Source: Tubulanus polymorphus
Lineage: Eukaryota > Animalia > Nemertea
Assembly: GCF_964204645.1 (NCBI RefSeq)
Contig: NC_134025.1
Coordinates: 19,505,101 to 19,569,100 of the forward strand
Direction of reading: 5' to 3'
DNA length: 64,000 nt
Made by a program: the position numbers and the translations under genes. The notes under the pieces are model-generated. The model had not been told where the DNA came from and searched no databases. It was given only the letters and a program-made list of their open reading frames with translations. Below are positions 5,601-62,659 of this stretch, in pieces. Position 1 is the first letter of the stretch. Each line of letters begins with the position of its first letter.

Positions 5601-6262
5601 TATATTGATACCTAAGCGTATTTTGCTACCACAATCAATTAGAAAGTTGTAGCTCATAACGTGTTCTATAATTGTGGTGAGTTCCAAGGTAATTGGATTT
5701 CGTATATGGCCACCAGGGGGCGTTGAATAATACAATATCGTAGCATTTCTTTATTATATTCGTACCTATGCATATTTTGTAACCACAATCAATTGGAAAG
5801 TTGTAGCTCATGACATCATCTATGATTGTTGCGAGTTTTAAGGACATAAGTTTTTCTATATGGTCACCAGGGGGCGTTGAATAGTAGAATAACTTAGTAT
5901 TTCCTTATTATATTGGTACCTAGGCATATTTTGTTGCCATGATCAATTGCAAAGTTGTAGTTCATGACATGTTCTATGATTGTGGTGAGTTTCGAGGTCA
6001 TTGGGTTTTGAATACGGTCACCAGGGGGCGTTGAATAGTAGAATGACTTAGTATTTCCATATTAAATTGGTAACGAGGCATATTTTGTTATCACAATCAA
6101 TTACAAAATCGTAGCTGTTGACATGTTCTATGATTGTGGTGAGTTTCAAGGTCATTGGTTTTTGTAAATGGTCACCAGGGGGCGTTGAATGTTGAAATTG
6201 TTAGATTGTTGAGCATTTGAAACCACTTCCCAAGTGGGCATGGTGTCCCTGGACCCCTAGTT
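2601..6262 (+). mobile_element. DINE-1-like HINE (Helentron family A), copy 1, interrupted by family B
   Basis: 5' tttt-agcccacttg(c)ga with a short hairpin, (GTCC)n microsatellite, 154-bp central tandem repeats, 3' subTIR tcccaagtgggc, hairpin ggtgtccctggacccc, then tagttt; sits in a T-run without TSD. Confidence 0.85.
2851..5244 (+). mobile_element. Helentron-like element family B nested in family A
   Basis: subTIRs ggccagcc (2853) / ggctggcc (5218); 3' hairpin gcccc-tt-ggggc; removing it restores family A (acacattttt|gaactttttgagggaaatt; compare 45661-45690). Confidence 0.75.
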
Positions 6263-16346: not shown

Positions 16347-17086
16347 CTTAAACAAGAGAAACATTTTCGCTTGCTTTCAAATGATTACCAACATACAAAA
16401 TCGTTTGAGATTGAAAATATCATATTGCATGAATTATAATGCTATGCTCTATACACGTGAAAACCATTGTTGCTACAAGGGAATTAACGTACGTATTTGC
16501 CCAGTCTATTTGCTAAACGTTTTACAATCAACATTGATGTTTTTTTAAATAATCCAACTTATTAACAACAATCTAATATATGATACGAAAAAAATTGCGA
16601 CGCGGGAATAACCCGGGCAGGTTGAACAAATGAAACAAATGATTACAAATAATCTAAGGAATTGAAATTTCTCGTCCAAAAGGTTTCAAATAGATAATAG
16701 GTGAGTTGGCTAGTTACATTGCAGAAAAAAATGTATCGTTGTGCCGACAGTGATATGGCCGATGAAAGCTTTCGAAATAGACAGTTGGACGGACTAGACA
16801 CATCAGACATTTTTTTTTGAAAAATGTATGAGTCCTGCACATGTGTAGCACACAGCATTGGAATAATGGAGCGGTTGTTAGGGCAACTGCAGTGAGCAAA
16901 CTACACGATGATTGTTTGCTTGTGCGGAATACTAATAATGCGTAGAATGTGTATTCGAAAGTTTTTGCGAGGTTTCTCTGAACTGTCAAAATATTTGCAT
17001 ACCAATTTAAAACAAGAGTGCTTCGCTAACTAAACGTTCTATCATCCTAGTTGAATTAGTCGATTACTGTCAAACACAATCCTTAC

Positions 17087-17919
17087 CTGCTGCGTACAAA
17101 TGACTTCTTGACAATAGTCTGTTTCCTTCGATAAATCGGTATCGCTTAGTAAATCTCTCACCAGAACAATGCCGATCAAATCGTGGCGGGAAAAGCGATC
17201 GAAGTCGTATAAACTGAACTGTAACATGCGCTTCGGCAAATCGTTGTAAGGTACTGCGAAGTTAAATGTCTCATCAAAATCGGGACACAATGTTTTCCTA
17301 TGGACTTTCGTGTGGAATTTGTTCTTTCTGTCCGGGAGTAGGTACACTTTTATGTATGGATCTGACGTTCCTGAGAAGTCTTTTGCGGGCAGTTCTTCGG
17401 CTTTGATTAAATTCACGACTAAATGCTCAGTTATTTGATCGTATAAAAGTGAAAAATATAAACGGCCGCAGGTTTTCGTGAAAATGTTAGAGGGTCGTCT
17501 GTCGTCAACGGCTAACTGTCTGTACAGTTCTGGTTTTAACGTGCCGATATCGGGTTGACTTCTCATGTTGAGTTTGCTAACGGTAAACTCAACATTTGAC
17601 ATGTCAAGTTTATGCGACAATTGACGCTGGAATGACTGATGACGCTGGGGAACCGTTGGCAAGGTCGTTTGCCTAAAGACCATCTTCCCCCAACCGAATT
17701 TTCGCAATGAGGAATGCTTATCCTCGTTGAGATCTGGCGTACTTTGACTAATTTTCAAGTTAGTCGTTTTAAATCCTGGCGGTGTATGGTCAGGCGAGCT
17801 CACAATCGAGTGGTCTTTCCTTTTTGCTTTCCAGCAGTACCACGTACAGTATGCAACTATGAGCATGACAATCACGCTCACTGATACCATTACAATGATA
17901 AGATATTGCAACGGTAAAC
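17087..17919 (-). CDS. Synaptotagmin exon (TM helix, linker, C2A)
   Basis: Hydrophobic helix then CTWYCWKAKRK; C2A motifs LPAKDFSGTSDPYIKVYLLPDRK and YDFDRFSRHDLIG; tttcag| and |gtaag boundaries. Confidence 0.95.
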
Positions 17920-19455
17920 CTGAAAGATAGATAGATCGCGTTGATATATTTATACATATAGGTTGAGACAATCGATTGCTTTCATCTGAGTCGATGCAAA
18001 CAAACATTCAGTCGGCAAGGAAATGCTTTTATACTTTTTTTCGATCAGTATTCGGAGAACTAAATTTGTCTGCATCACAATTGACATTAATGTACCACTT
18101 AACATGAATCTCGAGGAAGTAACTGACAAATAGCAGCCTGTCAATTTAGGCACATCAGATGCGCAAGACAATAAGTGATTCTGTTTGTCGTGCAGCAGTT
18201 GTACAACAGACTAAAGGCTAGGTATATACCGATAATATGAAAACACGCGAAACGATTCATTTTTCTCAAAATCCATATTCAATTTAATACAGCGATGTGG
18301 ATAATTTTCTAATGGCTCCGAGGTGACAAACACTCAATTCAACCAGCGTAAACCAGTTCATGAGTTACAGATATGAAATGAAAAAATACAAATCCCATTG
18401 ACTTTGACGTGAAAATAAGAAATGTCTTTCTGTGACCTTGACCTTTGTCCTACAGAACCCAGCATCTAATCAATTACTCACAGTCCCAAGATCAACCCAT
18501 CAATACAATTTTACCTGGGTCATCTAAATCGATTTATGAGATAGACCCCGGAAATACAAATTAATATCAACTAAATTTCTTAACACCGACTCGCTGACAT
18601 CAGTGTGAGGGATTTCAATACAAATATTAAGTTCCGCGTTAATGTAGTATATATATCCTTGATGAATCATGGCCGCTGTGCCGCTTGGTCGAAATAATAA
18701 CGAAGTGAGATTTCGTCGAGAAAATCAGAATTTCTGGGCAGTGGAAAAATGAACTAAGAGCCTGAACGAAGTTGGGAGTCGGGGGCAAAGTTATCAAGCA
18801 TAGTTGTATTGTCAGAATATATATGACAAATAGTACACGTGACACATTTTTCAATAATCAAGAATTATTCAAAATAACGCTCCGAATTTTAGTTGATATC
18901 ATCATGATTCGAAAAAATAGAACTTATAAACATTTGTTGTTCTGTGTGTGCTCAATACAGTTGCCACAGATTTGATCAATAAAACTATGCCGATAATTTT
19001 GTGACGTTGTGACAATACAAAGTTTATGAATGACATGAGGCGGGTATGATTATGATAGACCCAATCAATAATTTAGATTTGTGTAATCAGTATCCACTAG
19101 AGGGAGAATGACGTACGTAAACGCATGGCTAATTAGCATAATACAGGATGCTGCGTGAATGACGATTGGGTGCACTAATACTACCGAAGTACCGAATAAG
19201 ACCCTCCACTGGGGCAGTAGTCTAAATTCATAAAAAAAGCTACCAATTTAGTTACGAACTGAATGGGAGCTTGCATATACGACTGCTTGAAATCTGGGAA
19301 AGTTGAGTAAGCTATCACGTTTCCTAGCCGTTGGTGAAATTCCATTACAAATATTCTGACCCATAACGTAAAAATCCTAAAATTCCCCGATCTTTTCAGT
19401 CGGTATTCTATGGTGGCTGATTCGGGCTATGTAAAAAAAATCACAAATGGTGCAA

Positions 19456-20271: not shown

Positions 20272-20844
<573 letters not shown>

Positions 20845-28915: not shown

Positions 28916-29848
<933 letters not shown>

Positions 29849-30447
29849 ATACATATTTATATAGCGTATAAGCTACATCTTAGCGCGGGCACGTCAGATT
29901 GATATAGTAAGTGCAATAGTTAGCGTTCTCGTTGTCTGGATCAGAGAAACTTTACACCAAACGGTTCCGAATAACGGAAAGACAGCAGTAATAGGGGTAA
30001 TAGGCTTTCAAATCAAAGGTCGAACGGTCGAGCTCATAAAAAATGAAAAACATGAAAATAATAACAATTTCTACTTGAATTAGTCGCGAAACTCATAAAA
30101 AATGAAAAATAATTCTCACACACTCGAATTTATTTTTCATTTTTACTCGCTAGAAAAAAGTGTGAGTAAAGTGTGAGTGAAATAAATTCGAGTGTGTGAG
30201 AATTATTTTTTATTTTTTATGGGTTTCACTCCTAATTCAAGTAGAAATTGTTATTATTTTCATGTTTTTCATTTTTTAATGAACTCCACCATTCAACCTT
30301 TAACCTGAAAGCCTATTACCCCTATTACTCTTAAAATATTCATATACATGAATAAAATATATATGAATAACATATAAATTGATAGATTATTCAATATAAG
30401 TGTGAGTGAAATAATTCATATTAAAAACAGTGAATATTTATATTTGA

Positions 30448-31081
30448 ATGAGTTTTAATAAAAATTTTGTTATAAAAATGAAGAAAGAAGAAAAAGAACC
30501 CAACTTTAAAATCGAAATCAATGAAACCAATAAATCATTTTCACAGTTTTACATTAAAAATTATATTTCAGCAACAAATTTTGTGTCCGCAAGGTATTAT
30601 AAAATCAAAAATATTACTGTAATTAATCAAATATTATCAAATGAAACATATTTAATTACTGAACTAGTAGATACTTTTGATAATGGCGTTAAAAATCCTA
30701 AAATATTCAATACAGTTTTAAAATTAAAAGGAATTTTAGATGAAAACATAATAAATTTTCTTAATACTCCTTTCAATGAAAGAAATGATGATTTAATACT
30801 TTCTAAAGATTATAATGATTTGATTAACTTAAGAATTGAAAAAAGACAATTATATTATTTCAATTTTGATAATAAACAAATTATCTATAATGAAAATTCA
30901 TCAAATATTGGAATTCAATGTGAATTAGATAATGAAAAATCATTTAAAGATATTGCAGTTCAATGTAATTTAGATGATGAATTTAGAAAATTCAATCCTA
31001 ATGAAAAAGTGCATTGTTATTGCGGAGGTAAATATTTAAAATCACATAACAATTAAAAATAAAAACTGGCGTAAAGAGTAA
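30448..31081 (+). pseudogene. Element ORF1, left copy (~215 aa ancestral; C-terminal CxC..H..H zinc finger), 17-nt deletion near the 3' end
   Basis: 202-aa ORF 30448-31056; compared with the right copy it lacks aatcaaagcattatgga. Confidence 0.75.
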
Positions 31082-31133
31082 CAATTCTACATTACAATTA
31101 TTGAATTGAGTTAAATGATTTAAATATCTAATA

Positions 31134-32390
31134 GACTGTTAAAATGATAAATTGTTTAACAGTTGAAATGATAAATTGTTTAACAGTTGAAATGATAAAT
31201 TGTTTGACGGTTGAAATGATAAATTGTTTGACAGTTGAAATGATAAATTGTTCGACAGTTGAAATGATAAATTGTTTGACAGTTGAAATGATAAATTGTT
31301 TGACAGTTGAAATGATAAATTGTTCGACAGTTGAAATGATAAATTGTTCGACAGTTGAAATGATAAATTGTTTGGCAGTTGAAATGATAAATTGTTTGAC
31401 AGTTGAAATGATAAATTGTTTGGCAGTTGAAATGATAAATTGTTTGGCAGTTGAAATGATAAATTGTTTGGCAGTTGAAATGATAAATTGTTTGACAGTT
31501 GAAATGATAAATTGTTTGACAGTTGAAATGATAAATTATTTGACAGTTGAAATATTAAATTGTTTGACGGTTGAAATGATAAATTGTTTGACGGTTGAAA
31601 TGATAAATTGTTTGACTGTTGAAATGATAAATTGTTTGGCAGTTGAAATGATAAATTGTTTGACAGTTGAAATGATAAATTGTTCGACTGTTGAAATGAT
31701 AAATTGTTCGACAGTTGAAATGATAAATTGTTCGACAGTTTAAATGATAAATTGTTTGACAGTTGAAATGATAAATTGTTTGGCAGTTGAAATGATAAAT
31801 TGTTTGACAGTTGAAATGATAAATTGTTTGACAGTTGAAATGATAAATTGTTTGACAGTTGAAATGATAAATTGTTCGACAGTTGAAATGATAAATTGTT
31901 TGACAGTTGAAATGATAAATTGTTCGACAGTTGAAATGATAAATTGTTCGACAGTTGAAATGATAAATTGTTTGACAGTTGAAATGATAAATTGTTTGGC
32001 AGTTGAAATGATAAATTGTTTGACAGTTGAAATGATAAATTGTTTGACAGTTGAAATGATAAATTGTTTGGCAGTTGAATTGATAAATTGTTTGGCAGTT
32101 GAAATGATAAATTGTTTGGCAGTTGAAATGATAAATTGTTTGACAGTTGAAATGATAAATTGTTTGACAGTTGAAATGATAAATTATTTGACAGTTGAAA
32201 TATTAAATTGTTTGACGGTTGAAATGATAAATTGTTTGACAGTTGAAATGATAAATTGTTTGACTGTTGAAATGATAAATTTTTTGACAGTTGAAATGAT
32301 AAATTGTTTGACAGTTGAAATAATAAATTGTTTTACAGTTGAAATGTTAAATTGTTTGACAGTTGAAATGTTAAATTGTTTGGCTGTAAA
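31134..32390 (+). repeat. 24-bp tandem array (~52 units, atgataaattgtttgacagttgaa)
   Basis: Direct reading; the MINCLTVE periodicity in the ORF track reflects the 24-bp unit. Confidence 0.97.
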
Positions 32391-32506
32391 TTTCATTGTT
32401 ATTTGATTTAATCATTTAAAAGTTTAATATTTTTAAAATGATTATAAAATATTTAATTAAAAACTAGCAAATATTTTATAAACTGTTTAATTTTTCTCTT
32501 AAATAA

Positions 32507-32716
32507 ATGGATGGTTTCATCCCAACTGGGAAAAGTGATTTGAAACATTATTTAGTAGCAGGCGGATAAATATTGGCTGCGCTTTTCTTTTATTATGAAA
32601 ATATCAGTAAGGATTTGATTAATGAAAATATAAAATTGAGCAAGAAATTAAAGAAGTTAAATGGAAACAATCACAGAAATAAAAAAGTTAATGATTTAAA
32701 TGATTTGGAGGATTAA
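32507..32716 (+). pseudogene. Element ORF2, small putative membrane protein with one internal stop
   Basis: taaATG; MDGFIPTGKSDLKHYLVAGG*ILAALFFYYENISKDLINENIKLSKKLKKLNG...DLED*; in-frame TAA at 32567. Confidence 0.5.
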
Positions 32717-32763
32717 AACAACATCTTTTAATTTAATTTATTCTATATATTTTGTCTATAAAA

Positions 32764-33069
32764 ATGAGTGAAAATAAGGTATTAGAAATATTACATCTAA
32801 TATATAAAAATCAACAGAATATTTAATCAATTATTATGATTTCAGGTTTATTTTCATTCTCAGTTTATACTATAAAACAGTTGTTAGAATTCTATGATTG
32901 CTGTAAAATTAGATACACTGAATTAATAGAAAATATGAATTATATTTCAGATAGATTGAATAATATTAAATGCTGTGAAATATGCAATAAAAGATATAAA
33001 AATAAAAAATCATTAAGGAATCACATGTATCTTCACGAACTTGATGAAAAATTATATGAATCAAAATAA
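32764..33069 (+). pseudogene. Element ORF3, small C2H2 zinc-finger protein with one internal stop
   Basis: MSENKVLEILHLIYKNQQNI*SIIMISGLF...CEICNKRYKNKKSLRNHMYLH; in-frame TAA at 32824. Confidence 0.6.
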
Positions 33070-33224
33070 GAAATCGACTGTTAAATTAGCTGAAAATATA
33101 AAATATATTAGTTGAAATGTATGAAAATGAGTAAATTATATTTACGTTAAAAAAGGAGGGTTGAGGTATCAATGTATTAAATACGTATTAAATACGTATC
33201 AAATACGTATTAATGGTATTAAAT

Positions 33225-33432
33225 CATCCGTCAACTGTCAAACAATTTATCATTTCAACTGCCAAACAATTTATCATTTCAACTGTCAAACAATTTATCA
33301 TTTCAACTGTCGAACAATTTACCATTTCAACTGTCAAACAATTTATCATTTCAACTGTCAAACAATTTATCATTTCAACCGTCAAACAATTTATCATTTC
33401 AACTGTTAAACAATTTATCATTTTAACAGTCT
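33225..33432 (-). repeat. 24-bp tandem array, inverted copy (~8-9 units)
   Basis: Reverse complement of the 31134 array. Confidence 0.95.
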
Positions 33433-33483
33433 ATTAGATATTTAAATCATTTAACTCAATTCAATAATTGTAATGTAGAATTG

Positions 33484-34097
33484 TTACTCTTTACACCAGT
33501 TTTTATGTTTAATTGTTCCATAATGCTTTGATTTATGTGATTTTAAATATTTACCTCCGCAATAACAATGCACTTTTTCATTAGGATTGAATTTTCTAAA
33601 TTCATCATCTAAATTACATTGAACTGCAATATCTTTAAATGATTTTTCATTATCTAATTCACATTGAATTCCAATATTTGATGAATTTTCATTATAGATA
33701 ATTTGTTTATTATCAAAATTGAAATAATATAATTGTCTTTTTTCAATTCTTAAGTTAATCAAATCATTATAATCTTTAGAAAGTATTAAATCATCATTTC
33801 TTTCATTGAAAGGAGTTTTAAGAATATTTATTATGTTTTCATCTAAAATTTCTTTTAATTTTAAAACTGTATTGAATATTTTAGGATTTTTAACGCCATT
33901 ATCAAAAGTATCTACTAGTTCAGTAATTAAATATGTTTCATTTGATAATATTTGATTAATTACAGTAATATTTTTGATTTTATAATACCTTGCGGACACA
34001 AAATTTGTTGCTGAAATATAATTTTTAATGTAAAACTGTGAAACTGTGTTTTTCTTCTTTCTTCATTTTTATAACAAAATTTTTATTAAAACTCATT
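33484..34097 (-). pseudogene. Element ORF1, right copy; intact C-terminus, frameshifting indel near the 5' end
   Basis: Ends VHCYCGGKYLKSHKSKHYGTIKHKNWCKE*; 43 nt of the left copy are replaced by cacag near 34045. Confidence 0.75.
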
Positions 34098-34660
34098 CAA
34101 ATATAAATATTCACTGTTTTTAATATGAATTATTTCACTCACACTTTTATATTGAATAATCTATCAATTTACATGTTATTCATATATATTTTATTCATGT
34201 ATATGAATATTTTAAGAGTAATAGGGGTAATAGGCTTTCAGGTTAAAGGTTGAATGGTGGAGTTCATTAAAAAATGAAAAACATGAAAATAATAACAATT
34301 TCTACTTGAATTAGGAGTGAAACTCATAAAAAATAATTCTCACACACTCGAATTTATTTCACTCACACTTTTTTCTAGCGAGTAAAAATGAAAAATAAAT
34401 TCGAGTGTGTGAGAATTATTTTTCATTTTTTATGAGTTTCGCGACTAATTCAAGTAGAAATTGTTATTATTTTCATGTTTTTCATTTTTTAATGAACTCC
34501 ACCATTCAACCTTTAACCTGAAAGCCTATTACCTAGCCTATTGCTAGCGTCTCCTCTAATCGTTTCAGCTGACCGTTTGAATAATCAAAACATAGACAGA
34601 AAATGCAGGCCTCCAAGTAGAGATCCAGTTTTCAAAGACTACAAAGTCTTATCCTCACTA

Positions 34661-39665: not shown

Positions 39666-39829
39666 GACAATCCATCGAAGCATCTTTAAATTCTCAGAAT
39701 AGCAGGATTCTGTGTATGGACAAGACAGTAGAAATGGTTGATTTCTAATAATAAAAGGATTTGAAGATGCAGGGACGAAGTGGGCTTAAAGTGTCAAGAA
39801 TTGAGTAAACAATATCTATTAATACTCAC

Positions 39830-40549
39830 TGTTGTTATATGATTAATGAGTGTCTGTGGATGGATAAGTTTGTTTGTTTCATCCAAATTCACTATTGCTT
39901 GCGGTAAAGCAGCAATTGCATTTTCTTGATGGTGTTTGTGTTCCTTCACCATATGTCTATGAACAGTGCTGCGATGTTTTGCCCGAAACGGACAATAGAA
40001 GCATTGATGCGGCATTTCCCCTGTGTGTACCGGTAGATGATGCTTCAATATTGTCGCAGTTTTGAAACTTTTACCGCATGTTTCACATTTATAGCGGCGT
40101 GTCGTTTCGTCGCTCGTATGCGAGTTACGTATATGAGACGTCAACGTTTTTTGATCGCGGGCTCGGAAATAACAACTCTCATACGTGCACACATAAGGCC
40201 GGTGTTCTGTGTGAGTTCGAAGATGCGTTTTCAATGCTTGCTCCTGCATTGTTCCGTACGGACAAAATGAGCACCGGAACTTCTTCGGATCGTGACGTTT
40301 TTGCACGTGACACTTTAAATATAGTCGATCGGTTGTTTCGAAGCCACAAATCTCACAACGTAATATCGGGTTATTACTGTGCTTTCTGCGACGGTGGTTC
40401 ACAACGCTACTTGGATTTTTAAACTGTTGTCCACAAATATCGCACATAGCCATTTTTCCATCAAACTTATGAACCATGAAGACATGTTTTTGTAGATTGT
40501 TTTTCTGTGGAGCACGATATTTACAGTATGGGCATGGAAATCCTTTATT
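39830..40549 (-). CDS. C2H2 zinc-finger protein, main tandem-finger exon (~7 fingers)
   Basis: CPYC..H..H, CDIC, CEIC, CSFC..HLRTHTEHRPY, CTYESC, CETCGKSF..HLPVHTGEMPH, CFYC; 720 nt, phase 0-0. Confidence 0.93.
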
Positions 40550-40687
40550 CTGTAATGAATAATAATTACACATTGGGTTCATGAGGACATGTTATTCATA
40601 AATAATCAGTCTTTTCATCATCTTATGATCTGTTTACACACTTATTTTGTTTCATCGGAAGCGAAATTGTAGCTAAAAAATACAAAC

Positions 40688-42896: not shown

Positions 42897-45800
42897 ATTC
42901 CGCGACAATTCATTATTTTGGTTTTATCGCCCGCGACAATTCAATATTTTGGTTTTATCGCCCGCGATAATTCATTATTTTGGTTTTATCGCCCGCGACA
43001 ATTCAATATTTTGTTTTTATCGCCCGCGACAATTCATTATTTTGGTTTTGTCGCCCGCGACCATTCATTATTTTGGTTTTATCGCCCGCGTCAATTCATT
43101 ATTTTGGTTTTGTCGCCCGCGACAATTCATTATTTTGATTTTGTCGCCCGCGACGATTCAATATCTTGTTTTTGTCGCCCGAGACGATTCATTATTTTGG
43201 TTTTATCGCCCGCGACAATTCATTAGTTTGGTTTTATCGCCCGCGACAATTCATTAGTTTGGTTTTATCGCCCGCGACAATTCATTAGTTTGGTTTTGTT
43301 GCCCGCGACAATTCAATATTTTGGTTTTGTCACCCGCGAAAATTCAATATTTTGGTTTTATCGCCCGCGACAATTCATTACTTTGGTTTTATCGCCACCG
43401 ACAATTCATTATTTTGGTTTTTTTCTCGCCCGCGACAATTCATTATTTTGCTTTTATATTTTGTTTTTGTCGCCCGCGACAATTTTCTTTTTTGGTTTTA
43501 TCGCCTGCACAATTCAATATTTTTGTTTTATCGCCCGCGATTATTCATTATTTTGGTTTTGTCGCCTGAGACAATTCATTATTTTGGTTTTAACGCCCGC
43601 GACAATTCATTATTACGGTTTTATTGCCCGCGACAATTCATTATTTTGGTTTTGTCGCCCGCGACAATTCACCATTTTGGTTTTGTCACCAGCGACAATT
43701 CACCTTTTTGGTTTTGTCGCCCGCGACAATTCACCATTTTGGTTTTGTCGCCCGCGACAATTAACCATTTTGGTTTTGTTGCCCGCGACAATTCATTATT
43801 TTGGTTTTATCGCCCGCGACAATTCATTAATTTTGATTTATCGCCCGCGACAATTCATTATTTTTGTTTTGTCGCCCCGACAATTCTTTTTTTGGTTTTG
43901 TCGCCCGCAACAATTCAATATTTTGGTTTAGTCGCCCGCGAAAATTCAATATTTTGGTTTTGTCGCCCGCGATAATTCATTATTTTTCTTTTATCGCCTG
44001 TGACAATTCAATATTTTGGTTTTATCGCCCGCGATAATTCATTATTTTGGTTTTGTCGCCCGAGACAATTCATTATTTTGGTTTAATCGCCCGCGAAAAT
44101 TCTATATTTTGGTTTTATCGCCCGTGATAATTCATTATTTTGGTTTTATCGCCCGCGAAAATTCATTATTTTGGTTTTATCGCCCGCGACAATTCAATAT
44201 TTTGGTTTTATCGCCCACGACAATTCATTATTTTGGTTTTATATTTTGTTTTTATCGCCCGCGCCAATTATTTTTTGGTTTTGTCGCCCGCTACAATTCA
44301 ATATTTTGGTTTTGTCGCCCGCGACAATTCATTATTTTGGTTTTATCGCCCGCGACAATTCAATATATTTGTGTTTTATCGCCCACGACAATTCATTATT
44401 TTGGTTTTATATTTTGTTTTTATCGCCCGCGCCAATTATTTTTTGGTTTTGTCGCCCGCGACAATTCAATATTTTGGTTTTGTCGCCCGCGACAATTCAT
44501 TATTTTGGTTTTATCGCCCGCAACAATTCAATATTTTGTTTTTATCGCCCGCGACAATTCATTATTTTGGTTTTATCGCCCGTGATAATTCATTATTTTG
44601 GTTTTATCGCCCGCGAAAATTCATTATTTTGGTTTTATCGCCCGCGACAATTCAATATTTTGGTTTTATCGCCCGCGACAATTCATTATTTTGGTTTTAT
44701 CGCTTGCGACAATTCATTATTTTGGTTTTGTCGCCCGCGACAATTCAATATTTTGGTTTTGTCGCCCGCGACAATTCATTATTTTGGTTTTATCGCCCGC
44801 AACAATTCAATATTTTGTTTTTATCGCCCGCGACAATTCATTATTTTGGTTTTATCGCCCGTGATAATTCATTATTTTGGTTTTATCGCCCGCGAAAATT
44901 CATTATTTTGGTTTTATCGCCCGCGACAATTCAATATTTTGGTTTTATCGCCCACGACAATTCATTATTTTGGTTTTATATTTTGTTTTTATCGCCCGCG
45001 CCAATTATTTTTTGGTTTTGTCGCCCGCTACAATTCAATATTTTGGTTTTGTCGCCCGCGACAATTCATTATTTTGGTTTTATCGCCCGTGACAATTCAA
45101 TATTTTGGTTTTATCGCCCACGACAATTCATTATTTTGGTTTTATATTTTGTTTTTATCGCCCGCGCCAATTATTTTTTGGTTTTGTCGCCCGCGACAAT
45201 TCAATATTTTGGTTTTGTCGCCCGCGACAATTCATTATTTTGGTTTTATCGCCCGCAACAATTCAATATTTTGTTTTTATCGCCCGCGACAATTCATTAT
45301 TTTGGTTTTGTCGCCCGAGACCATTCATTATTTTGGTTTTATCGCCCGCGACAATTCATTATTTTGGTTTTGTCGCCCGCGACAATTCTGTAGTTTGGTT
45401 TTGTCACCCGCGACAATTATTTTTCAGTCCACTTGGGACTTTAGTCCCAGCGGGCTATTGCGTTCACTTTTCGTCCGTCCGTCCGTCCATAGACGGAATC
45501 CAGTTATTTTGGGAAGTTTTGAAGACGCTTCAAGGTAATGTCTTGATATTTGGTTTATACATGTATCTACCCTAGACACATCGTCAGCCCAAAAACTGGC
45601 CCTGTCAGATTCAAGATGGCCGACTGGCAGCCATTGTTGTTTGCCAAAATCAGCACTTTTTAAACATTTTCGAAGTTTTCGTGGGAAATTTTGAAGACGC
45701 TTTGATCAATTACCTTGATCTTTCGTTTATATTTGAATCTACCAAAGGCCCATCAGCATAAGAAAATTGGGTCGATCTGACTCAAGATGGCCGTCCTATG

Positions 45801-47040
45801 ACCTTTTTAGTGCCCAAAAATGTCAATTTTGGCCAGAATTCTAGGTCACGTAGCTTCCTACTGGTTTGCCATTTCTCATTGCAATTGCTGATGGGTATTC
45901 TTTAGAGAGGGATGTTTTATACCTGGGACAGGTATCTTTGATCAGCCAATTATGACGCAATTGGCGGCCATCTTGGTGTCATCAGTACTCATTCGTAGGT
46001 GGGAAAAAGTTTTTCCACATTAAATTGATACCTAAGCATATTGCGTTACTATATTCAATTGGAAAGTTGTTGCCCATAACGTGTTCTATGATTTTGGTGA
46101 GTTTCAAGGTCATTGGTTTTTTTATGTGGCCATCAGGGGGCATTGAATAATACAATAACTTAGTATTGCTATATTTGTGCCAAGGCATATTTTGTTACCA
46201 TGATCAATTGCAAAGTTGTAGTTCATGACATCGTCTATGATTGTGGTGAGTTTTTAAGGACATTAGTTATTCCATATAGTCACCAGGGGGCGTTGAATAG
46301 TAGAATGGCTTAGTATTTCCTTATTAGATTGGTACCTAGGCATATTTTGTTACTATGATCAATTGCAAAGTTGTATTTCATGACATGTACTACGATTGGG
46401 GTGAGTTTTTAAGGTCATTGGGTTTTGCATATGGTCACCAGGGGGCGTTGAATAGTAGAATAACTTAGTATTTCCATATTAAATTGGTAACGAGGCATAT
46501 TTTGTTATCACAATCGATTACAAAATCATAGCTGCTCACATGTTCTATGATTGTGGTGGGTTTCAAGGTCATTGGTTTTTGTATATGGTCACTAGAGGGC
46601 GTTATGTATTGAAATTGTTAGATTGTTGAGCATTTGAAACCACTTCCCAAGTGAGCATGGTGTCCCTGGACCCCTAGTTTGGTTTTGTCGCCCGCGACAA
46701 TTCATTATTTTGGTTTTGTCGCACGCAACAATTCAATATTTTGTTTTTGTCGTCCGTGACAATTCATTATTTTGGTTTTATCGCCCGCGACAATTCAATA
46801 TTTTGGTTTTATCGCCCCCGACAATTCATCATTTTGGTTTTATTGCCCGCGACAATTCATTATTTTTGTTTTGTCGCCCGTGACAATTCAATATTTTGGT
46901 TTTATCGCCCCCGACAATTCATCATTTTGGTTTTATTGCCCGCGACAATTCATTATTTTTGTTTTGTCGCCCGTGACAATTCAATATTTTGGTTTTGTCA
47001 CCCGCGACAATTCATAATTTTGGTTTTGTCACCCGTGGTT
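42897..47040 (+). repeat. 31-bp satellite (cgcgacaattcattattttggttttatcgcc), interrupted by HINE A
   Basis: Arrays at 42897-45420 and 46680-47040. Confidence 0.97.
45421..46679 (+). mobile_element. HINE family A, copy 2 (intact, ~1.26 kb)
   Basis: Same termini, GTCC tract and 154-bp repeats as copy 1; inserted in a T-run of the satellite. Confidence 0.9.
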
Positions 47041-49366: not shown

Positions 49367-50314
49367 AAACTAGGGGTCCAGGGACACCATGCCCACTTGG
49401 GAAGTGGTTTCAAATGCTCGACAATCTGACAATTTCAATATTCAACGCCCCCTGGTGACCATATGCAAAAACCAATGACCTTAAAACTCATCACAATCAT
49501 AGAACAATAGAACATGTCAGCAGCTACGATTTTGTAATTGATTGTGATAACAAAATACGCCTAGGTACCAATATGATATGGAAATACTAAGTTATTCTAC
49601 TAAATTTCAACGCCCCTGGTGACCATATGCAAAACCCAATGACCTTGAAACTCACCACAATCATGGAACATGTCATGAGCTACAACTTTGAAATGAATCA
49701 GGGTAACAAAATATGCCTAGGTACCAATGTAATAAGGAAATACTAAGTTATTCTACTATTCATCGCCCCTGGTGACCATGCAGAACAACTAATGACCTTG
49801 AAACTCACCACAATCATCGCCCATGTCATGAGCTACAACTGTGCTAACAAAATATGCATAGGTACAAATATAACATAGAATTACTAAGTTATTGTATAAT
49901 TCAATGCCCCCTGGTGGCCATAAACAAAATCCGCTGACCTTGAAACTCACCACAATTAATTGTGGTAACAAAATATGCTTAGGTATCAATATAATGTGGA
50001 AAACATTTTTTCCACCTACGAATGAGTACTGATGACACGAAGATGGCAGCCAACTGTGTGATAATAGGCTGATCAAAGATACCCGTCTTAGGTATTAACG
50101 TTTCCTTTCCATATTAAAATAGCCATCACAAATTGCAATGAAAAATGGCAAACCAGTAGGAAGCTACAGGACTCGGAATTGGGGCCAAAATAGAAATTTT
50201 GGGCACAATAAGTCTTTAACTTCTCAAAATAATTGGATTCCGTCTATGGACGAACAGACTGATGACAAGTGAACGCAATAGCCCCTGGGAATAAAGTCCC
50301 AAGTGGGCTAAAAA
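49367..50314 (-). mobile_element. HINE family A, copy 3
   Basis: aaactaggggtccagggacacc...gtcccaagtgggctaaaaa; internal deletion. Confidence 0.9.
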
Positions 50315-50520: not shown

Positions 50521-50877
50521 CTTAAGATGAAGATTGTGGATTAAGAAATGTTCAATACATATACAGATCGAGATATGATTAAAATACGATGTGAGTTATT
50601 TGGAACTAGACTACATATATCAGTCATATTAGACGTCCAAATTATTTTCAAAATATGAATTATCAACAGAGCCTGGATCCATTTCACTAATCAATTCAAT
50701 TCAACAGTTGACTCCTACAGTACCGGGTACCCATAAGATGATTTCAAAATGACCCGGTTGAATTACAAAATCATTTTTTCATATACCCATAAATGGCAAT
50801 AAATATGATGTTCCTCGAAGATGAGAGGAAAATTGTTGGGCTGGATTGCAAGCTAAAGTGTCCTCTGCTATACATAC

Positions 50878-51183
50878 CATCTAGATGGCACTTCTTATGC
50901 AGTTGAAGTTCCTCGAGGGAATGTAGGTAAATAGTTTTGCAACGGCTACAACGATACGGTTTAACATTTGCCACTTTTCTTAGTCGTGGCTTCTTAAAAG
51001 GTTGATTTGTCGATCTATCAATGTCATCCCATTCGTTACGTGAAGATTTATCAGTTATGTGTGGCAATGAGGGCCAAACGGCAATATCCGCATGATGCTG
51101 AATGTAATGATCTCTAAGTCCATCCCACGTATCATAGCGTAATGTTGAATCACAGCATAGGGTGCACACAAATTTTGCTTCTT
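50878..51183 (-). CDS. C2H2 zinc-finger protein exon
   Basis: CTLC..HYIQHH and CSRC..HKKCH; phase 1-1. Confidence 0.88.
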
Positions 51184-51646
51184 CTGAAATGTAATGACCA
51201 TAGTTTATTGTATGATGGATTTAGAACCAGAGGCATTTCCAGACAGTATTTGAAGGAAAATCAGGGACATGTAAAATGTAGACCCGATCCATGCCTGTAC
51301 TAGATTTTTAAAATTTCACATCATCTGAGCTCAATCCAGAGTTACTTTATGGGATTGCTCCTCAAACTCCTGTATACGGTATGAGCTTGTAATTCCAAGC
51401 TTTTATTATTGTAAAATTACCAGCTGATATAGCTCAGCAGTGTGTTTGTACATGACCTACATAGCATTGAAGTTTTTTCCAAAGAAATTAATTCATCAGG
51501 TCTGAAGTATATTTAAAAGTGAAAAGCCGAGGTCCGTAGATGAAACATACCGAACCAAGTTTCGGAGTAGATTAAATCAAATCAAATCTGTGAGACTAAT
51601 AAGTAATTCAAGTAATGTCAATGGACCCCTATACTATGGAAGTATT

Positions 51647-52071: not shown

Positions 52072-52743
52072 TGATGGCACAGGCCAGTTGCAAGTGGCAA
52101 CTTTTTATTTGCTTGTCCATCCTGCTCTAGCACCACCTCAGTGTATATTTTTCTAAACTAATATGATATCATAATTTTCAACATCTTTTTTTTAAGTCTT
52201 CTTACATAACAAAAAACTTGAAACTTGGGTAACTTACTTAATTCAGATTTTGATTTAAACTGTAGTCACTTATTAATCCTGTCCATTTTGCCATTTTAAA
52301 TGAAAGAAAAATATCTCTTTTATTCGAATCCAAATTTTCTTAATTCAGACCAAAATTTCAGTTCTTTTTGGAAATTTCTATTGGAACAATTACATCTTTA
52401 TTTGGCTTTTATTGATGACCATATTTTAGGTATATAAGGGTGGTGATAGCTAATTCGGATTTGGTCTAATTTTGACAAAATTTGTTCATCCCCAGTGATC
52501 CGAACAAAGCAAGTTCAACTAGTTAGACATGCCTAGTCCAAGTGGCTATCAGCACTAGACCTGGCCCAATCCAGGTGTCCATTGTCAAAAAGAAATCAAT
52601 AATATTGGTGCATTTCTCTTGCATCTATTTTTCAGGTGAAATAATGTGTTTGTATAACCGCAATTTCTATATTTTATCTGGATGAGCTCAGTTTAATTCT
52701 TAATGTAACAAATGTATTTCTTTGACAATTATTTGAACTGTAC

Positions 52744-53634
52744 CTAAGCAATGTGATTGAATATGAATTTCAATTTCATTTTTACATCCTCTCATCAGAA
52801 CACAATGAGGACAAAATGACATGATACCACCAGGCCTTTCCTTCTCATCTGCTATTTCAATCTTTGTTCCTTCACCTTGTACCGAAGAAGAATTTTCATG
52901 TATCCAGAATGTCTCTAATACTGGCATTTTATCGAGGTCGCCTTGTGGAAGTTGTGTTTCATCATTACTGGTTCCATTGACTATAATATTTGCATCTGCC
53001 TCATCATCTTGTTCCTCTTGTTGGCGTTTCACCTCAGTTTCAATGGCCTCGATTAAATCTTCAAGAGTTTGTGCTGGAGCAGGAGTTGTCAAATCAGTAG
53101 TTTTCGACACGGATTCAACATTGACCCCAATACCAACCAACTGTTCCTTAACATCAATGTTTCCATCAGCCTGTTCATTTACAATAGATGCATCATATAC
53201 ATTGCATCCTTGAAAATTAACATCATCATAGGCATCTCCAATCATAAAAACACCATCCAAACCTGGGAATGGCATCACTCTAAAATCAGAAGGTTTTTTT
53301 GCGAGTTTTATTTCAGTGGAATGATGCTTTGGAGGTCGGCCTCTGCGTCTGCACCTCACGCTAGGAGCATTGCTGTTAGATTTAGACAATGCTGTTTTTT
53401 GTGAAGGAGTATACATGTCCTCTTCTTTGTTATCAAGTTCTTCATTGTCAGAAATGTCATCCTCGTCCATAATTGGCTTTTTTGGGGAAAAAACATCACT
53501 GTGTTTACTGTGTCGGGCTATGATGCCATCAATTCTTTTCCGATCATTTTCATCATGCTCAGCAAGATGCAAGAACATCCGACACCAGGTCCTATACTCC
53601 ATTTCACACCAGGGACATCGAAAATGTTTTTCAT
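52744..53634 (-). CDS. C2H2 zinc-finger protein exon with AT-hook (RRGRPPK) and acidic linker
   Basis: CPWC..HLAEH and CPHC..HIQSH; 891 nt, phase 1-1. Confidence 0.9.
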
Positions 53635-53826
53635 CTACCAAGAAATTTAAAATCATATACAAGCTTGAGAGAGCATATAAAACTACTTAACTGCTTGGAA
53701 GAACAAGACAATATAAGTAAGACAGTAAAATAAGACTTTATTGGACATAAGTTGTGAGGAAAAATTAATTTCCGAAGCATTGACTCTGAATGTACATCCT
53801 GTTATGTCGACTGTTTGTAAATAATT

Positions 53827-55406: not shown

Positions 55407-56514
55407 AAACTAGGAGTCCAGGGACACCATGCCCACTTGGGAAGTGGTTTCAGATGCTCAACAATCAAACAATTTCAATATTCAACGCCCCATCCAATGA
55501 CCTTGAAAAATCCAATGACCTTGAAACTCACCACTATCATAGAAAATGTCAGCAGCTACAATTTTGTAATTGATTATGGTAACAAAATATGCCTAGTTAC
55601 CAATATGATATGGAAATACTAAGTTATTCCACTATTCAACGCCCCTTAGTGACCACATAGAATAACTAATGTCCTTGAAACTCACCACAATCATAGACCA
55701 TGTCATGAACTACAACTTTCCAATTGATTGTGGTAACAAAATATGCATAGGTACGAATATAATACAGAAATATCAAGTTATTGCATTCTTCAATGCCCCC
55801 TGGTGGCCATATGCAAAAACCAATGACCTTGATAGTCACCACGATCATAGACCATGTCATGAGCTACAACTTTCCAGTTGATTGTGGTAACAAAATATGC
55901 TTAAGTATCAAAATAATGTGGAAAAATTTTTTCTACCTACGAATGAGTACTGATGACACCAAGATGGGCGCCAATTGTGTCAAAATTGCCTGATCAAATA
56001 AACCTGTTTCGGGAATAAGAGATCCCTTTCCAAAGAATACCCCATCACAAAATGCAATGAAAAATTGCAAACAATTAGGAAGCTACAGGACTCAGAATTC
56101 AAGCCAAAATTGACATTTTTGGGCACAAAAAAGGTCACAGGACAGCCATCTTGACTCTCGGGGGATACAAATATGTATGAACGATCAAGGAAATAGATAA
56201 AAGCGTCTTCAAAATTTCCCTCGAAAACTTCGAAAATGTGTAAAAAGTGATGATTTTGGCACACAACAATGGCTGCAAGTCGGCCATCTTGATTCTGGCT
56301 GGGCCAGTTTTTGGGCTGAAGATGTGTCTAGGGTAGATACATGTGTAACCCAAATATCAAGACATTACATTAAAGCGTCTTCAAAACTTCCCAAAATAAC
56401 TGGATTCTGTCTACGGACAGATGGACGCTACGACGGACGGACGAACAGATGGACGACCGAACTAAAAGTGAACGCAATAGCGCGCTGGGACTAAAGTCCT
56501 AAGTGGGCTTAAAA
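55407..56514 (-). mobile_element. HINE family A, copy 4, inserted in Pao gag
   Basis: Splits the conserved gag ELL..RYG stretch at an A-run. Confidence 0.9.
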
Positions 56515-58109
56515 CCGATACGGGCATGACTTAAATAATCAATGCGTACATTTCAGCTTTGTTAGCTCTAGAAAAACCATTGTCTACGATCGCCAGCCTG
56601 CGACATTTCTACGATGAGATGGAATCACACATAAGAGGATTTTCGGTGCTGGGGAAAGCTGAGGGATCTTACGGTGACTTGTTGATACCCGTTATCTTAG
56701 AAAAGCTACCGAATACCATAGGGACTCAAATCCGGTTGCTCACGGCGACAAGCAATGGGAGTTGTCGCAATTACGCAGAGTAATTCTTGGGGAAATCAAA
56801 GCCATGCAGGCCGCTTCTTCCTCACCACTGTATCAACAAGATTTTGATCTTGCTGAAAATTCGTACAGTGCTGCATTTCACGTTGGCGGGAAACCGAGAC
56901 CTACAAGAAAGCCTCCTGCACTGACTCGTGGTGGACCCTCAGCGTGTGTTTTCTGTGGTGGGAAACATTTCCCTACAGATTGCGATGTAATTACTTCGGA
57001 GGACACGAGATTAGCATTAACTTAGAAAAACCAACTGTGTTTCAATTGTCTCATGCGTTATTTAACCAAGAAGTGGTTATCTTCAAAAACCTGCAAAGTA
57101 TGTCAAGCAAAACATCATACAGCACTCTGCGATAGAAAATCTTCCGACAAAGCAGAAAAAACATATGCTCGTCGTAACAACAATGATGCTGACAACTGCA
57201 AGCATTTGGATACTGAAAGGGTCACATTTACTCAGCTAAATGGTCAGGTGATGCTGAAAACAGCAGCTGCAGAAATAACGACTGGTGACGTTGATTTATA
57301 CAACCGAACATCCACATTCGTTTTGTTTGATGAAAGCCCGACCAAATCCTTCATAACACAACAGCTGAAAGATATATTAAACTTGAAAGTTGAAAGCCGT
57401 GAACTCATTAACCTGATTGTTTTTGGTGAGATTGAAGCAAAAGAGCGCAATTTAGAATGTGTAAAAATTAACATTATAGATAACTCCGGTAATCGGATAC
57501 CGATATCCGCCTTCGTTGTTCTTGAAATATCAACTTCCATGAAAAACTTAGTTACAAGGGACGCGTCGCGACTGAACTATTTCGCGGGAATCAAATTAGC
57601 GCATCCTCCGTCAACTATGGACTCGTTTGATATATCTGTTCTTGTAGTGATAGAATCCTGCGCGGTGATGGTCCTACTGCAGTTTCGAGCAAACTTTGGT
57701 TCTTGCTGTCTGGACCCACCCCGTTTGAGCCTATCAAGAAACACGTGCTTGCTACCTGTTAGCCGATACATCAAGCAATGATGATTCTCTGATGCATCTC
57801 TGGAACCTCGAATCCATAGAAATCATAACACCTCCTCAAAGCCAATCAACTGGATGACTCTGCGAAAAAGTACATTTCGAAATTACCGTGGAAGGCAGAG
57901 CACCCGACTCTTCCTACAAATTACGAAGTAGCGGCAGGAAGAACTCGTAACATGGTTCTTACACTACCCTCCGACGTAATAAAGGTGTATGATCGCATAA
58001 TGTCTGAACAATTAGATTGTGGATTTATCGAAATTGTAGAAGACGACGATACGAACTTAGGGCATTATTTACCCCACAGAGCTGTGAAGAAAGATTCGAT
58101 TACTACGCC

Positions 58110-58505
58110 TGTCGTAGTTTCCAAGAAACTACTCAGTTGTACTAGTTAGTTTAGTTTATTTTCAAATTGTCCTAGTTTAGTTTTTTTGTGCTGACATGGA
58201 TTTGCACAAGATGGTGTAATGTGTAGTACTAGCAAGTTGAATGTTGGAGATTACTTAACACAGTAGAACTAGCTCAACGATTTGTAAGTAAATGTTTAAA
58301 TTGTTTCTTTAAGAATGATATTCCAGGTCTTATTTAGATAAGCATAGTTTTAGAGATTATTAGTTTGATAGATGTGTGATGTTTGTTTTTCTATATTTGT
58401 AGAAAACTGTGTCAGTTTGCGTCTGTTTTGCGTTTGTTAGCGTCTAAGTTTGATGGATCTGCATTGATTATGCAGTCTAAAAACAAAAATAAAAACGACT
58501 CCACA
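58110..58505 (+). mobile_element. Solo LTR (396 bp) inserted in Pao RT
   Basis: TGT...ACA ends, AATAAA near the 3' end, perfect 5-bp TSD ACGCC (58105-58109 / 58506-58510). Confidence 0.88.
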
Positions 58506-61370
58506 ACGCCGATTCGAATCGTTTACGATTGTTTGCGCAAGATAGGAGACATGCCAAGTCTCAACGGATCTTGATAGTGAATTTGTTATGTACAGATTCA
58601 CTTCAGTAGCCCCACTATACTTAACTCCGTTATCAGACATCATTTATCAAATGATGAGTCTTCCGTGACGCAAAATATGAAAGAAAGTATCTACGTCAAC
58701 AATCTGGTGGGTGGAACAAATTCTACTCAAGACGCTGTGAAGTACTACGAAAAAGCTAACTTTTTGATGGAAACCCCTGGTTTCAAGTTGTGCTTATGGG
58801 CAACGAATGATGCTACCGTAAATGCTAAGGCGGCCCAAGATAGATTAGCAATCGCCGGTCAAAACAATATGCCTATTTTAGGAATGCTTTGGAGCGTTTC
58901 CGATGACAATCTTAAATACAAAGCGTACAAACATGAAAATTCAACTTAAGAAGTAATGAAATGTCAAGTAATTAAAAGGGCATCTAGCGTGTATGACCCT
59001 TTAGGACATTTATTTACTAACGGCCAAATTTCTGATAAAACTTATACCGAGAAAGAGCCGATTCGCAACTCTGTTAATTCAAGAAACTCATGCGAAGGCG
59101 CTTAATTGTGGATTAAATGCGACTATCGGTTTATTGAGAGAGAATTATTGGCTCACTAGAATAAGAACAACTGTTAAATCAGTTCTCTGGCTTTGTTACA
59201 TGTGTGTTCATTTATGCGGTAAAGCTTACGCTAAAACTCTCAATGCTCCTCTACCGAGGTTCAGAGTCGATGATCAATCTCCGCCGTTCACCACCACCGG
59301 TGTTGATTTCACAGGGGAAATGTTCATTAAAATGATGATGGGAGTCGCTGGAAATGTTACGTTTGCTTATTCATGTGCGCTACGACACGAGCGGTGCATT
59401 TGGAATTGGTCGGTGATTTGCGCACTGAAACCTTCCTTTACCTGTTCAGAAAGTTTACCGCTCGTTGTTCGTTGTCGAGAAATGTACATAAGGTTTTCGA
59501 TAACGGGAAACATTCATGGCCACTGCTGCCGAACTTGAAGAACTCTTTAAATCACCAGAGTTTAAACGGTTTATGTCGGAAAGAGGTTTTCGTTGGTCAT
59601 TTATTAAGAGTGGTTTTGGGGAAAAAATGGTCAGGGCTACGAAACTAGCAATCAAGAAGGTGCTAGGGTGCGGATAGGTTACATTTGACCCACTAGCTAC
59701 CTTACTGTGCGAAATAGAGGCGTCTATTAATAACTGACCTCTAACCTACGTTTAGGCCTATAGTGATATTAAAGAGCTGTCACCGCTAACGCCGTCACAT
59801 CTTTTGTACGGCCAAATTATTTATACGATACCTCACCCGTTTGTTGTTTCAGATGAAACCAATGATCCGGATTATATTCAGACTTGTGATGAAATTCTAC
59901 TGCGAAATAATAAACTTGCGATTCTCTTCGATTGATTCTGGAAGCGTTGGAGTTCCGATTATCTGCTGGCTTTGAGAGAGCGATCGAGTAAGAGAAATCT
60001 CAACGGAACTGTCAAAATTAAAATTCGTGCCAGAGACGTAGTATCAGTACATTCCGATAATCGTAAACGGCTGCTCTGGGACAGGGCAGTTGTAACGAAA
60101 CTGCTTCCCAGTCCCGATGGTTTGGTTAGATGTGCGCAGATTCGAACAAAATATAGAATTACAAACAGGTCGATTACGAAGTTATATTCTTGAAATAATT
60201 GATAGTCTCGAAATAGGTGACCCGAAAGATACCGTAGATTCCGATCAGAATGAAACAAAATCGCAAGAACGTGAGAAATGCCTAACTCAAAAATCAGCAG
60301 ATCTTGTGAAAATTAACATCACGAAATGGAATCGGGACCTTTTACATGATAGTGAATAATCATTTGAACTATGCATATAATCATATATTCTCTTAAAGCT
60401 CTTCAAGCTCTGATATATAATCTTACAAGAAATGCGTGGTTTGTTTCACGGTTTTTTGATAAATTGGTTGTAATATGAATATGTAGTGTTTAGTTTCTTA
60501 CGATTGACACGTAATTATGTCGAGAAGTTCTGGGTCAAGCTCGCCTTAATCATGTTTACAAGTTGTCAGACTGTAGTTGATATATTTACCACTGCTTCAT
60601 TTTATAAGTGGGTCACAGTATCTACTTCATTACTACTATAGCCATCTATGAATTAGTATTCACGCTGTTTGCCTATATGTTTATCTAGAACAATTTTTTT
60701 GTGTTTAACTTACGCTGCCATTTGTTTTCCCGGTTTTCAAGTGTTTTAGGATTGTGCATTTTGACTTTTACTTTCTTTTACTTTTGTTGGCCGGGACTAT
60801 GTGGTAAACCACTCATACATATAGATTAGCCAATGATGTATTTACTAAACACGCATGCCCCGCCCTATTTACTAACAGCAGCAGGCTCACGTGGTTAGCG
60901 TGTGTTTGCTGAATAATTAGCAGTTACTATCTATCATTCACCAAATTCAGTCGTTTATCTCGTTTCTATATTATTGTTGAGGATCGTTTCAGGTGTGGAT
61001 CGCCACACTTACCCCTACCCTACCTACCACACCCATCAAGAAGCCGATTTAAATTAACTAATGAGTCCAAACAAAATCCCTTTTTCATTGAACTCACAAC
61101 CATCTAGTAGACACACGGAAACAGCTTAAGACCCAATATTCTTCAGCATAGAGAGTTTTGAGAGGTGCTTACCCTACTCGGGCCACACCCATCAAGAAGC
61201 TGATTTGATTTACTTTTGTGCCAAGCAAAATTTTAATGAACTCAAAACCATCCAAGTTCAATATTGAGACTCCGTGAGACCCACTTATATTAACCAGAAG
61301 CAAACAAAGAAGAACAAAGAAGAGGGATGCTTTCCCTTAATCAGCCCTTTTCCTAAAAGCTCAATTCTAG

Positions 61371-62211: not shown

Positions 62212-62243
62212 ATTGGCGATGAAGGTATCAACAACAAACTTAC

Positions 62244-62380
62244 CTATGATTAACATTATTTCTTCTTTTGCATTGAAGTTTCTCTTCAATGTGAACTGCC
62301 TGATGAGCAAGAAACTGACCATACTGAATGAATTCTGTCTGACAAAACGTGCACATAAATTTCACGCAGTCAGCTGGTAG
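62244..62380 (-). CDS. C2H2 zinc-finger protein exon
   Basis: tttttgcag|LPADCVKFMCTFCQTEFIQYGQFLAHQAVH...NH-AG|gtaag; phase 2 matches the 54371 acceptor. Confidence 0.88.
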
Positions 62381-62455
62381 CTGCAAAAATGAAACGTCAG
62401 TTATCATAGACCTCATTGAAAAGACAATAGCCACGCTCGAAATAGATTCACGTAC

Positions 62456-62638
62456 TACTTCATCAATTGGCTCAGCAGTATCATCCGCTACAGTGGAAGA
62501 TTCAGATATTCCAACAATTTTTCTAGGACGTCCTCTCTTCTTCCTTACAGGTTGAGCAGTTTCTGCCTCAGCAACAATTGTGTTAATTGTGTTTTTAACA
62601 TCAATGTTAGTTTCTATTCCATTGAATAGGTTGTCTTG
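62456..62638 (-). CDS. C2H2 zinc-finger protein exon with AT-hook (KKRGRPRK); 5' end of gene unresolved
   Basis: cattgcag|QDNLFNG...PIDEV|gtacgt. Confidence 0.75.
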
Positions 62639-62659
62639 CTGCAATGTAGACATAACTTT

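Follow-up and report, generated by a model that had tools for sequence, protein, structure and literature searches.

What kind of element occupies positions 29987 to 34545 of this 64,000-nucleotide stretch of the genome of the nemertean Tubulanus polymorphus (contig NC_134025.1; the whole stretch is referred to below as the window)? An earlier note, made from the sequence alone, described a hairpin-ended, virus-like element that fits no standard transposon class. The sequencing reads show that it belongs to a family with many copies, to which the terminal hairpin is common, and that this integrated copy is poor in genes. It is probably, if by no means certainly, a non-autonomous and internally deleted derivative of a Polinton-like element that would be copied by hairpin priming.

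The mirror architecture put forward in the earlier note holds. Hairpins of 343 and 329 bp stand at the outer ends of inverted repeats of ~1.35 kb, each of which carries open reading frame (ORF) 1 and a portion of a 24-bp tandem array, and two small ORFs lie in the core. The element is, as had been noted, more AT-rich than its surroundings (23.5% GC, against 34.0% and 37.0% in the 5-kb flanks), and no further copy lies elsewhere in the 64-kb window. The layout comprises:

29987..34545, no strand: whole element, 4559 bp, 23.5% GC, the left end set by loose read ends.
29987..31334, + strand: long inverted repeat on the left, made up of hairpin, spacer, ORF1 and the first part of the array.
33231..34545, - strand: right long inverted repeat.
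29987..30329, no strand: left terminal palindrome, 343 bp, with AGT...ACT ends, a 9-bp end repeat in tandem and a central loop that is asymmetric.
34217..34545, no strand: right terminal palindrome, 329 bp, its last 12 bases irregular.
31134..32382, + strand: 24-bp tandem array on the left, with 52.0 copies at 95% matches.
33231..33431, - strand: 24-bp array on the right, in inverted orientation, with 8.4 copies.

Once the arrays are set aside, the two repeats show 17 substitutions in 1091 aligned pairs together with 7 indels, and the outer 50 bp account for 8 of the 17. Both hairpins are imperfect; their asymmetric loop has the same relative orientation at either end, and the end motif is found again at the inner foot of each. 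Computed DNA folding gives -128.9 kcal/mol for the left palindrome and -146.9 kcal/mol for the right (z ~-29 and ~-30, relative to 30 dinucleotide shuffles of each). The right end is irregular, with a 3-bp insert and one substitution, and the outer 50 bp of its palindrome resemble the inner arm, not the left tip. A 16-bp motif of the hairpin loop (30160-30180) is seen again in the spacer preceding ORF1 (30399-30414), in both repeats, and is possibly a protein-binding site. An 11-bp repeat (33166-33224, 4.8 copies) lies where the core meets the right array.

Whether this arrangement is a single-copy accident can be read from sequencing data. Four of the 10 listed runs were aligned to 29060-31130, and four runs of one study contain part of the element; no RNA run was among those listed with it. 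The raw-read run, of which ~12% was read, comes from another sample with the same species label. In it the flanks have a mean depth of 3.0 over 13 noisy bins (0.04-7.0), while ORF1 stands at 296 over 8 bins (~99-fold the flank), the tip at 2795 (position 30013; ~900-fold) and the inner foot of the hairpin at 998 (position 30314). To an order of magnitude, there are ~100 copies of ORF1 and several hundred ends. At the left tip, 1355 reads run loose before 29987 and 483 before 29986; the agreement among their loose letters is low (0.35 and 0.34, respectively), which means that a base-exact tip adjoins many unlike flanks. More than 1,800 reads ending in this way point to integration by an enzyme. 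The depth and the fixed tip together rule out a single-copy accident or a mis-assembly for the family, so that the local fold-back or mis-assembly that the earlier note had named as its own possible undoing does not explain it. The likeness to poxviruses and parvoviruses that was drawn in the same place stands for the shape of the element; beyond shape, those same reads speak instead for insertion by an enzyme. The left junction itself is covered by a 988-base contig that spans 29060-30016 with 0 differences, and the run from which it comes is possibly the source of the window.

The hairpin is not peculiar to this copy. Two sets of reads leave the window sequence at places that mirror each other exactly: 870 reads do so behind 30043 and 278 before 30273. 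Their loose ends are reverse complements of one another at 26 of 28 letters, whereas only 17 of 30 letters agree with the window's arm. A second subfamily thus has a differing arm sequence that is mirrored at the matching place, which makes the hairpin a trait of the family. There is also a shortened form in which 30088 is joined to 30227 and the arms retain 102 and 103 bases; it is seen in 118 reads and in contigs from all three of the contig runs. The inner end of the hairpin runs on into shared internal sequence at a depth of ~1000, as against ~2800 at the tip; a free MITE (a miniature transposable element with inverted repeats) is therefore unlikely to end at that place, though lone palindromes may exist. 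The two long repeats have also been made alike. At 13 places at least 80% of the reads differ from the left copy, and nine of these departures are common to both repeats, with four confined to the left one; the shared variants imply that the repeats were made alike after this lineage had left most of the family. Pairing of the repeats during copying would be expected to produce such likeness, and a local inverted duplication would yield the same pattern.

Which known elements have ends of this kind? The Polinton/Maverick group has an (AGT)2 or (AG)3 end motif, and vertebrate Mavericks have repeats of 46-1447 bp (PMC8097293), a range into which the ~1.35-kb repeat falls; the tip, whose position is set by the reads, is AGTAAT and agrees with (AGT)2 at five of six bases. 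In its AGT...ACT ends, repeats in the range up to ~1.5 kb and intronless ORFs, and in belonging with elements most of whose copies are decayed, the element resembles animal Polintons and Mavericks (PMC8097293, PMC10748475). Judged by its sharp ends, the motif they bear and the length of its repeats, the element fits the Polinton/Maverick group best, and the view that no standard class suits it lacks support in the form in which it was put. The companion claim, that Polintons have no such hairpins, was too strong, because a 2026 preprint reports terminal palindromes in integrated Polinton-like viruses (PLVs). Palindromes are there described at the inverted-repeat ends of virophage subtypes 1, 2, 5 and 6 and of PLV subtype 4, all integrated in Halocafeteria seosinensis; the preprint ties them to replication genes other than that of pPolB, the DNA polymerase B that is primed by protein, and proposes hairpin priming, while allowing for an accidental origin (10.64898/2026.07.28.741278). 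Outer-end palindromes on inverted repeats, an integrated state and low GC are common to those elements and to the one described here. The Halocafeteria elements, in contrast, are complete, live in a protist and have capsid, integrase and replication genes together with target duplications, whereas the present element sits in an animal and has kept no core gene. Neither "hairpin" nor "palindrome" occurs in the main text of PMC8097293 or PMC10748475.

The genes of this copy are few. Long frames spanning the arrays are regarded as by-products of the 24-bp unit, and outside the arrays there are only the following:

30448..31056, + strand: left copy of ORF1, 202 codons from the first ATG; a deletion near the 3' end cuts its zinc finger.
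33484..34073, - strand: right copy of ORF1; a deletion near the 5' end, the whole C-x-C-G-x-x-Y...H...H finger retained.
32507..32716, + strand: core ORF2, 69 codons; a hydrophobic stretch, then a basic tail; in-frame stop at codon 21.
32764..33069, + strand: core ORF3, of 101 codons, with a single C2H2 zinc finger and interrupted by an in-frame stop at codon 21.

All four are broken, since each copy of ORF1 has a deletion of its own and ORF2 and ORF3 have their stops. Both core genes share the orientation of the left ORF1. The motif TATAAAAATG is found where the two ORF1 copies and ORF3 begin, and once in the remaining 59.4 kb; in the left ORF1 a second ATG (30478) follows TATAAAA. The earlier note had seen no transposase, integrase, reverse transcriptase or Rep motif, and a search of the four frames against Pfam and PHROGs likewise matched no such family. 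The zinc finger of ORF3 gives a zf-C2H2 match (E 2e-4) that lies under the Pfam cut-off. For ORF2 the part after the stop was scanned, against these two collections, with no Pfam match above cut-off and nothing useful in PHROGs; the Rfam and PHROGs scans as a whole gave nothing useful.

ORF1 looks to be under constraint as a protein gene. Its variable places, drawn from the best 40 of 221 rows, fall on third, first and second codon positions 12, 8 and 3 times (n=23; P 0.048 and 0.026, chi-square P 0.07), and among the nine indels listed one lies inside ORF1 and is 3 letters long. A full HMMER search over all lengths found no relative of its main body among 1.84 billion representatives. There were 12 weak matches (E 7e-7 to 1e-3) centred on the C-terminal C-x-C-G-x-x-Y...H...H finger, four of them in proteins with a GIY-YIG domain above cut-off, and none of the 10 match clusters looked up bears an informative name. 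GIY-YIG genes are widespread in PLVs and virophages (PMC12220804), so that a finger type shared with GIY-YIG proteins points to Polintons and Mavericks, though it is not specific to PLVs or virophages. A word-indexed search with the right ORF1 and ORF3, covering near lengths, found no homologue of near length. The single-sequence structure model of the left ORF1 has a mean predicted local distance difference test score of 34.8, and a protein atlas gave top scores of 0.83-0.84 (recognition 1930), with viral clusters two of the top three, which serves as a lead only. A 45-bp repeat within ORF1 (30887-30981 and 33601-33695) encodes IGIQC and IAVQC, which we take to resemble binding motifs for the dynein light chain LC8.

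The only flanking match, with lengths of 2-10 bp tested, is one of 3 bp, which holds if the right end is placed at 34545:

29984..29986, + strand: AGC, left copy of a candidate 3-bp target duplication, perhaps chance.
34546..34548, + strand: AGC, right copy of the same, perhaps chance.

The statement that there is no convincing target duplication therefore survives for lengths of 2 and 4-10 bp and is qualified by this match. Polinton duplications measure 5-8 bp (PMC10748475), and those of endogenous mavirus-like elements mostly 3-5 bp (PMC8547959). Across the family, the flanks of three read groups (1355, 483 and 229 reads) agree in having A at -5, G at -3 and T at -2, a preference that is weakly compatible with a symmetric 6-bp target and that a 3- or 4-bp target would fit too.

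How might a Polinton-like derivative of this kind be maintained? A longer parent would provide, in trans, an integrase of the retroviral type to recognise the AGT...ACT tip and insert the element. After excision, a single strand may pair through its inverted repeats, and the terminal palindrome could then fold back to provide a primer for copying; such fold-back pairing would explain the variants that are common to both repeats as well as arm sequences copied onto one another. The stretch between the arrays would have shed its genes for morphogenesis and replication, with accessory genes in the repeats and next to them surviving, and this copy would afterwards have decayed in place. The internal deletion is our reconstruction, as are the parent and the priming of copies by the hairpin.

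A series of observations weighs against this account. No parent with an integrase or a polymerase was found. Unlike Polintons and Mavericks, this copy holds a whole ORF and an array inside the repeat and has no ORF for pPolB or for a retroviral-type integrase, no gene for a capsid, packaging ATPase or protease, and no 6-bp target duplication (the 3-bp match lies beside the irregular right end). It is not filed as a Polinton because polymerase, integrase, capsid and 6-bp duplication are all missing from it. Its tip is AGTAAT instead of AGTAGT, and the finger matches of ORF1 are weak, unnamed and without a tie to Polintons. The flank preference was noticed post hoc (P ~0.03 for three of five columns), and two of five control columns agree in the same way. 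Tips are about nine times as abundant as ORF1, which means that other subfamilies or shorter forms account for most ends, and the two-ended layout with ORF1 is known from this copy alone. Read joints are asymmetric about the hairpin axis in five of the six examined, with 84 more joints lying outside that set. Finally, the palindrome drawn in the preprint is 52 nt long (10.64898/2026.07.28.741278), as against hairpins of 329-343 bp here.

A bolder proposal, which we consider rather unlikely, is that the hundreds of ends in this animal genome belong to a lineage, so far undescribed, of virus-derived elements that integrate, have dropped protein priming and combine copying from long hairpins, in rolling-hairpin style, with insertion by an integrase. 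If true, it would be a hybrid of Polinton integration and replication of the parvovirus or poxvirus type, with its own swarm of non-autonomous derivatives.

For Polinton-like elements that lack a protein-primed polymerase, hairpin priming has been proposed only recently as the way in which replication starts, from short palindromes in a protist. An abundant animal family with hairpins of 330-340 bp, several arm types and internal variants makes that idea testable. No description of such a layout in an animal was found in the literature searched, the coverage of which does not extend to Repbase and subscription papers. Annotation by polymerase and integrase genes would overlook non-autonomous elements of this sort.

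Could the element be an ordinary transposon instead? Foldback transposons (FB, Galileo, TU) and Tlr1 of Tetrahymena have long inverted repeats with unequal tandem arrays, and by that definition, which is the classic foldback layout, the arrays enclosed within the long inverted repeats here are a likeness. Foldback transposons and Tlr1 are not known to have a hairpin within each repeat. Autonomous foldback copies carry a DDE transposase, and this copy has none. A non-autonomous foldback-type DNA transposon, or a combination of two palindromic MITEs, moved by a DDE transposase that makes a 3-bp duplication, would account for AGC at both ends and for the excess of tips over ORF1, and C at -1 (at least 26%, against a background of 19%) fits a symmetric 3-bp target. 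The explanation is nevertheless unlikely: the inner end of the hairpin enters the same internal sequence at high depth, intronless AT-rich ORFs with a common start motif and a virus-type finger are unusual cargo for a transposon, and AG ends are not known from superfamilies with 3-bp duplications (CACTA, PIF/Harbinger, Academ, Zator). A short duplication is, moreover, no preserve of transposons, since the mavirus-like elements already referred to leave it as well (PMC8547959).

The same shape could also belong to an invertebrate linear DNA virus or plasmid, hairpin-ended and undescribed, that lies outside the Polinton group; it would have a nickase or resolvase of its own, replicate by a rolling hairpin and integrate through that enzyme or through host repair. 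Termini of parvoviruses (including adeno-associated virus) and of poxviruses are imperfect hairpins, and poxviruses have gene-bearing repeats with arrays, as well as TAAATG-like starts. Poxviruses and asfarviruses carry covalently closed flip-flop hairpins at the ends of a free linear genome, and the copy seen here is an integrated one. Imperfect hairpins with loops that are asymmetric in the same orientation, gene-bearing repeats and arrays are what such a replicon would have; the end motif at the inner foot of the hairpin lies where a resolution nick would fall, the irregular right end resembles a templated repair junction, and the main body of ORF1 is without relatives. What makes this origin decidedly unlikely is that base-exact ends with unlike flanks in more than 1,800 reads suit an integrase better than capture by repair; parvoviruses and poxviruses are not known to leave hundreds of base-exact genomic ends, in contrast to this family. 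Unlike those viruses, this copy has no NS1/Rep with HUH and SF3 domains, no resolvase and no capsid gene, and no related viral or metagenome contig came to light in the scans described below. Least probable of all, and very doubtful, is that the family is real while the mirror is local, a one-ended insertion having had its other end rebuilt by template switching as an inverted copy, so that the 4.6-kb unit never moved whole: the irregular right tip whose outer 50 bp follow the inner arm, the missing 6-bp duplication and the unequal arrays (52 and 8.4 copies) would fit, but the right repeat is no copy of the present left one, given separate deletions and left-only variants at four of the 13 tested places, and the core genes are co-oriented with the left ORF1, with ORF3 having the same start motif.

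Scanning for the end motif returned four viral loci and no metagenome loci, and scanning for the hairpin pattern returned 27 viral loci; none of these 31 matched the element by blastn, and paired arms were present at three of the 27. Scans with ORF1 were confirmed in none of 91 viral and none of 600 metagenome contigs. Three loci were rejected as relatives: L011 and L015 are phage-like contigs in which the motif sits within a larger palindrome, and the inverted repeat in L016 is unrelated. Two of these contigs have features of their own. L015 opens with a 434-bp imperfect hairpin (1-434) with perfect arms of 117 bp, unrelated to the element and possibly a real hairpin end. The whole of L011 (1-5448) is a perfect palindrome, likely an artefact of assembly or amplification, or else a hairpin junction.

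The rest of the window holds a few other features. A synaptotagmin exon with the C2A domain (17042-18007, - strand) matches synaptotagmin-3 at E 6e-53. Four frames on the - strand resemble C2H2 zinc-finger exons (39794-40591, 50771-51220, 52700-53686 and 62240-62662); the first alone has a Pfam match, as a multi-finger C2H2 exon, and this exon and that of the synaptotagmin mark the host as an animal. At 57026-59538 (+ strand) there is a broken remnant of a long terminal repeat retrotransposon, presumably of the BEL/Pao type, with a weak Integrase_H2C2 match. Repetitive sequence includes a repeat of 154-156 bp in short dispersed arrays in both orientations (4791-6190, 46008-46603, 49440-49956 and 55507-55917), a 31-bp tandem array whose higher-order units measure 73 and 104 bp (42900-45418 and 46678-47035) and a perfect (AGC) run of 190 copies (20273-20842).

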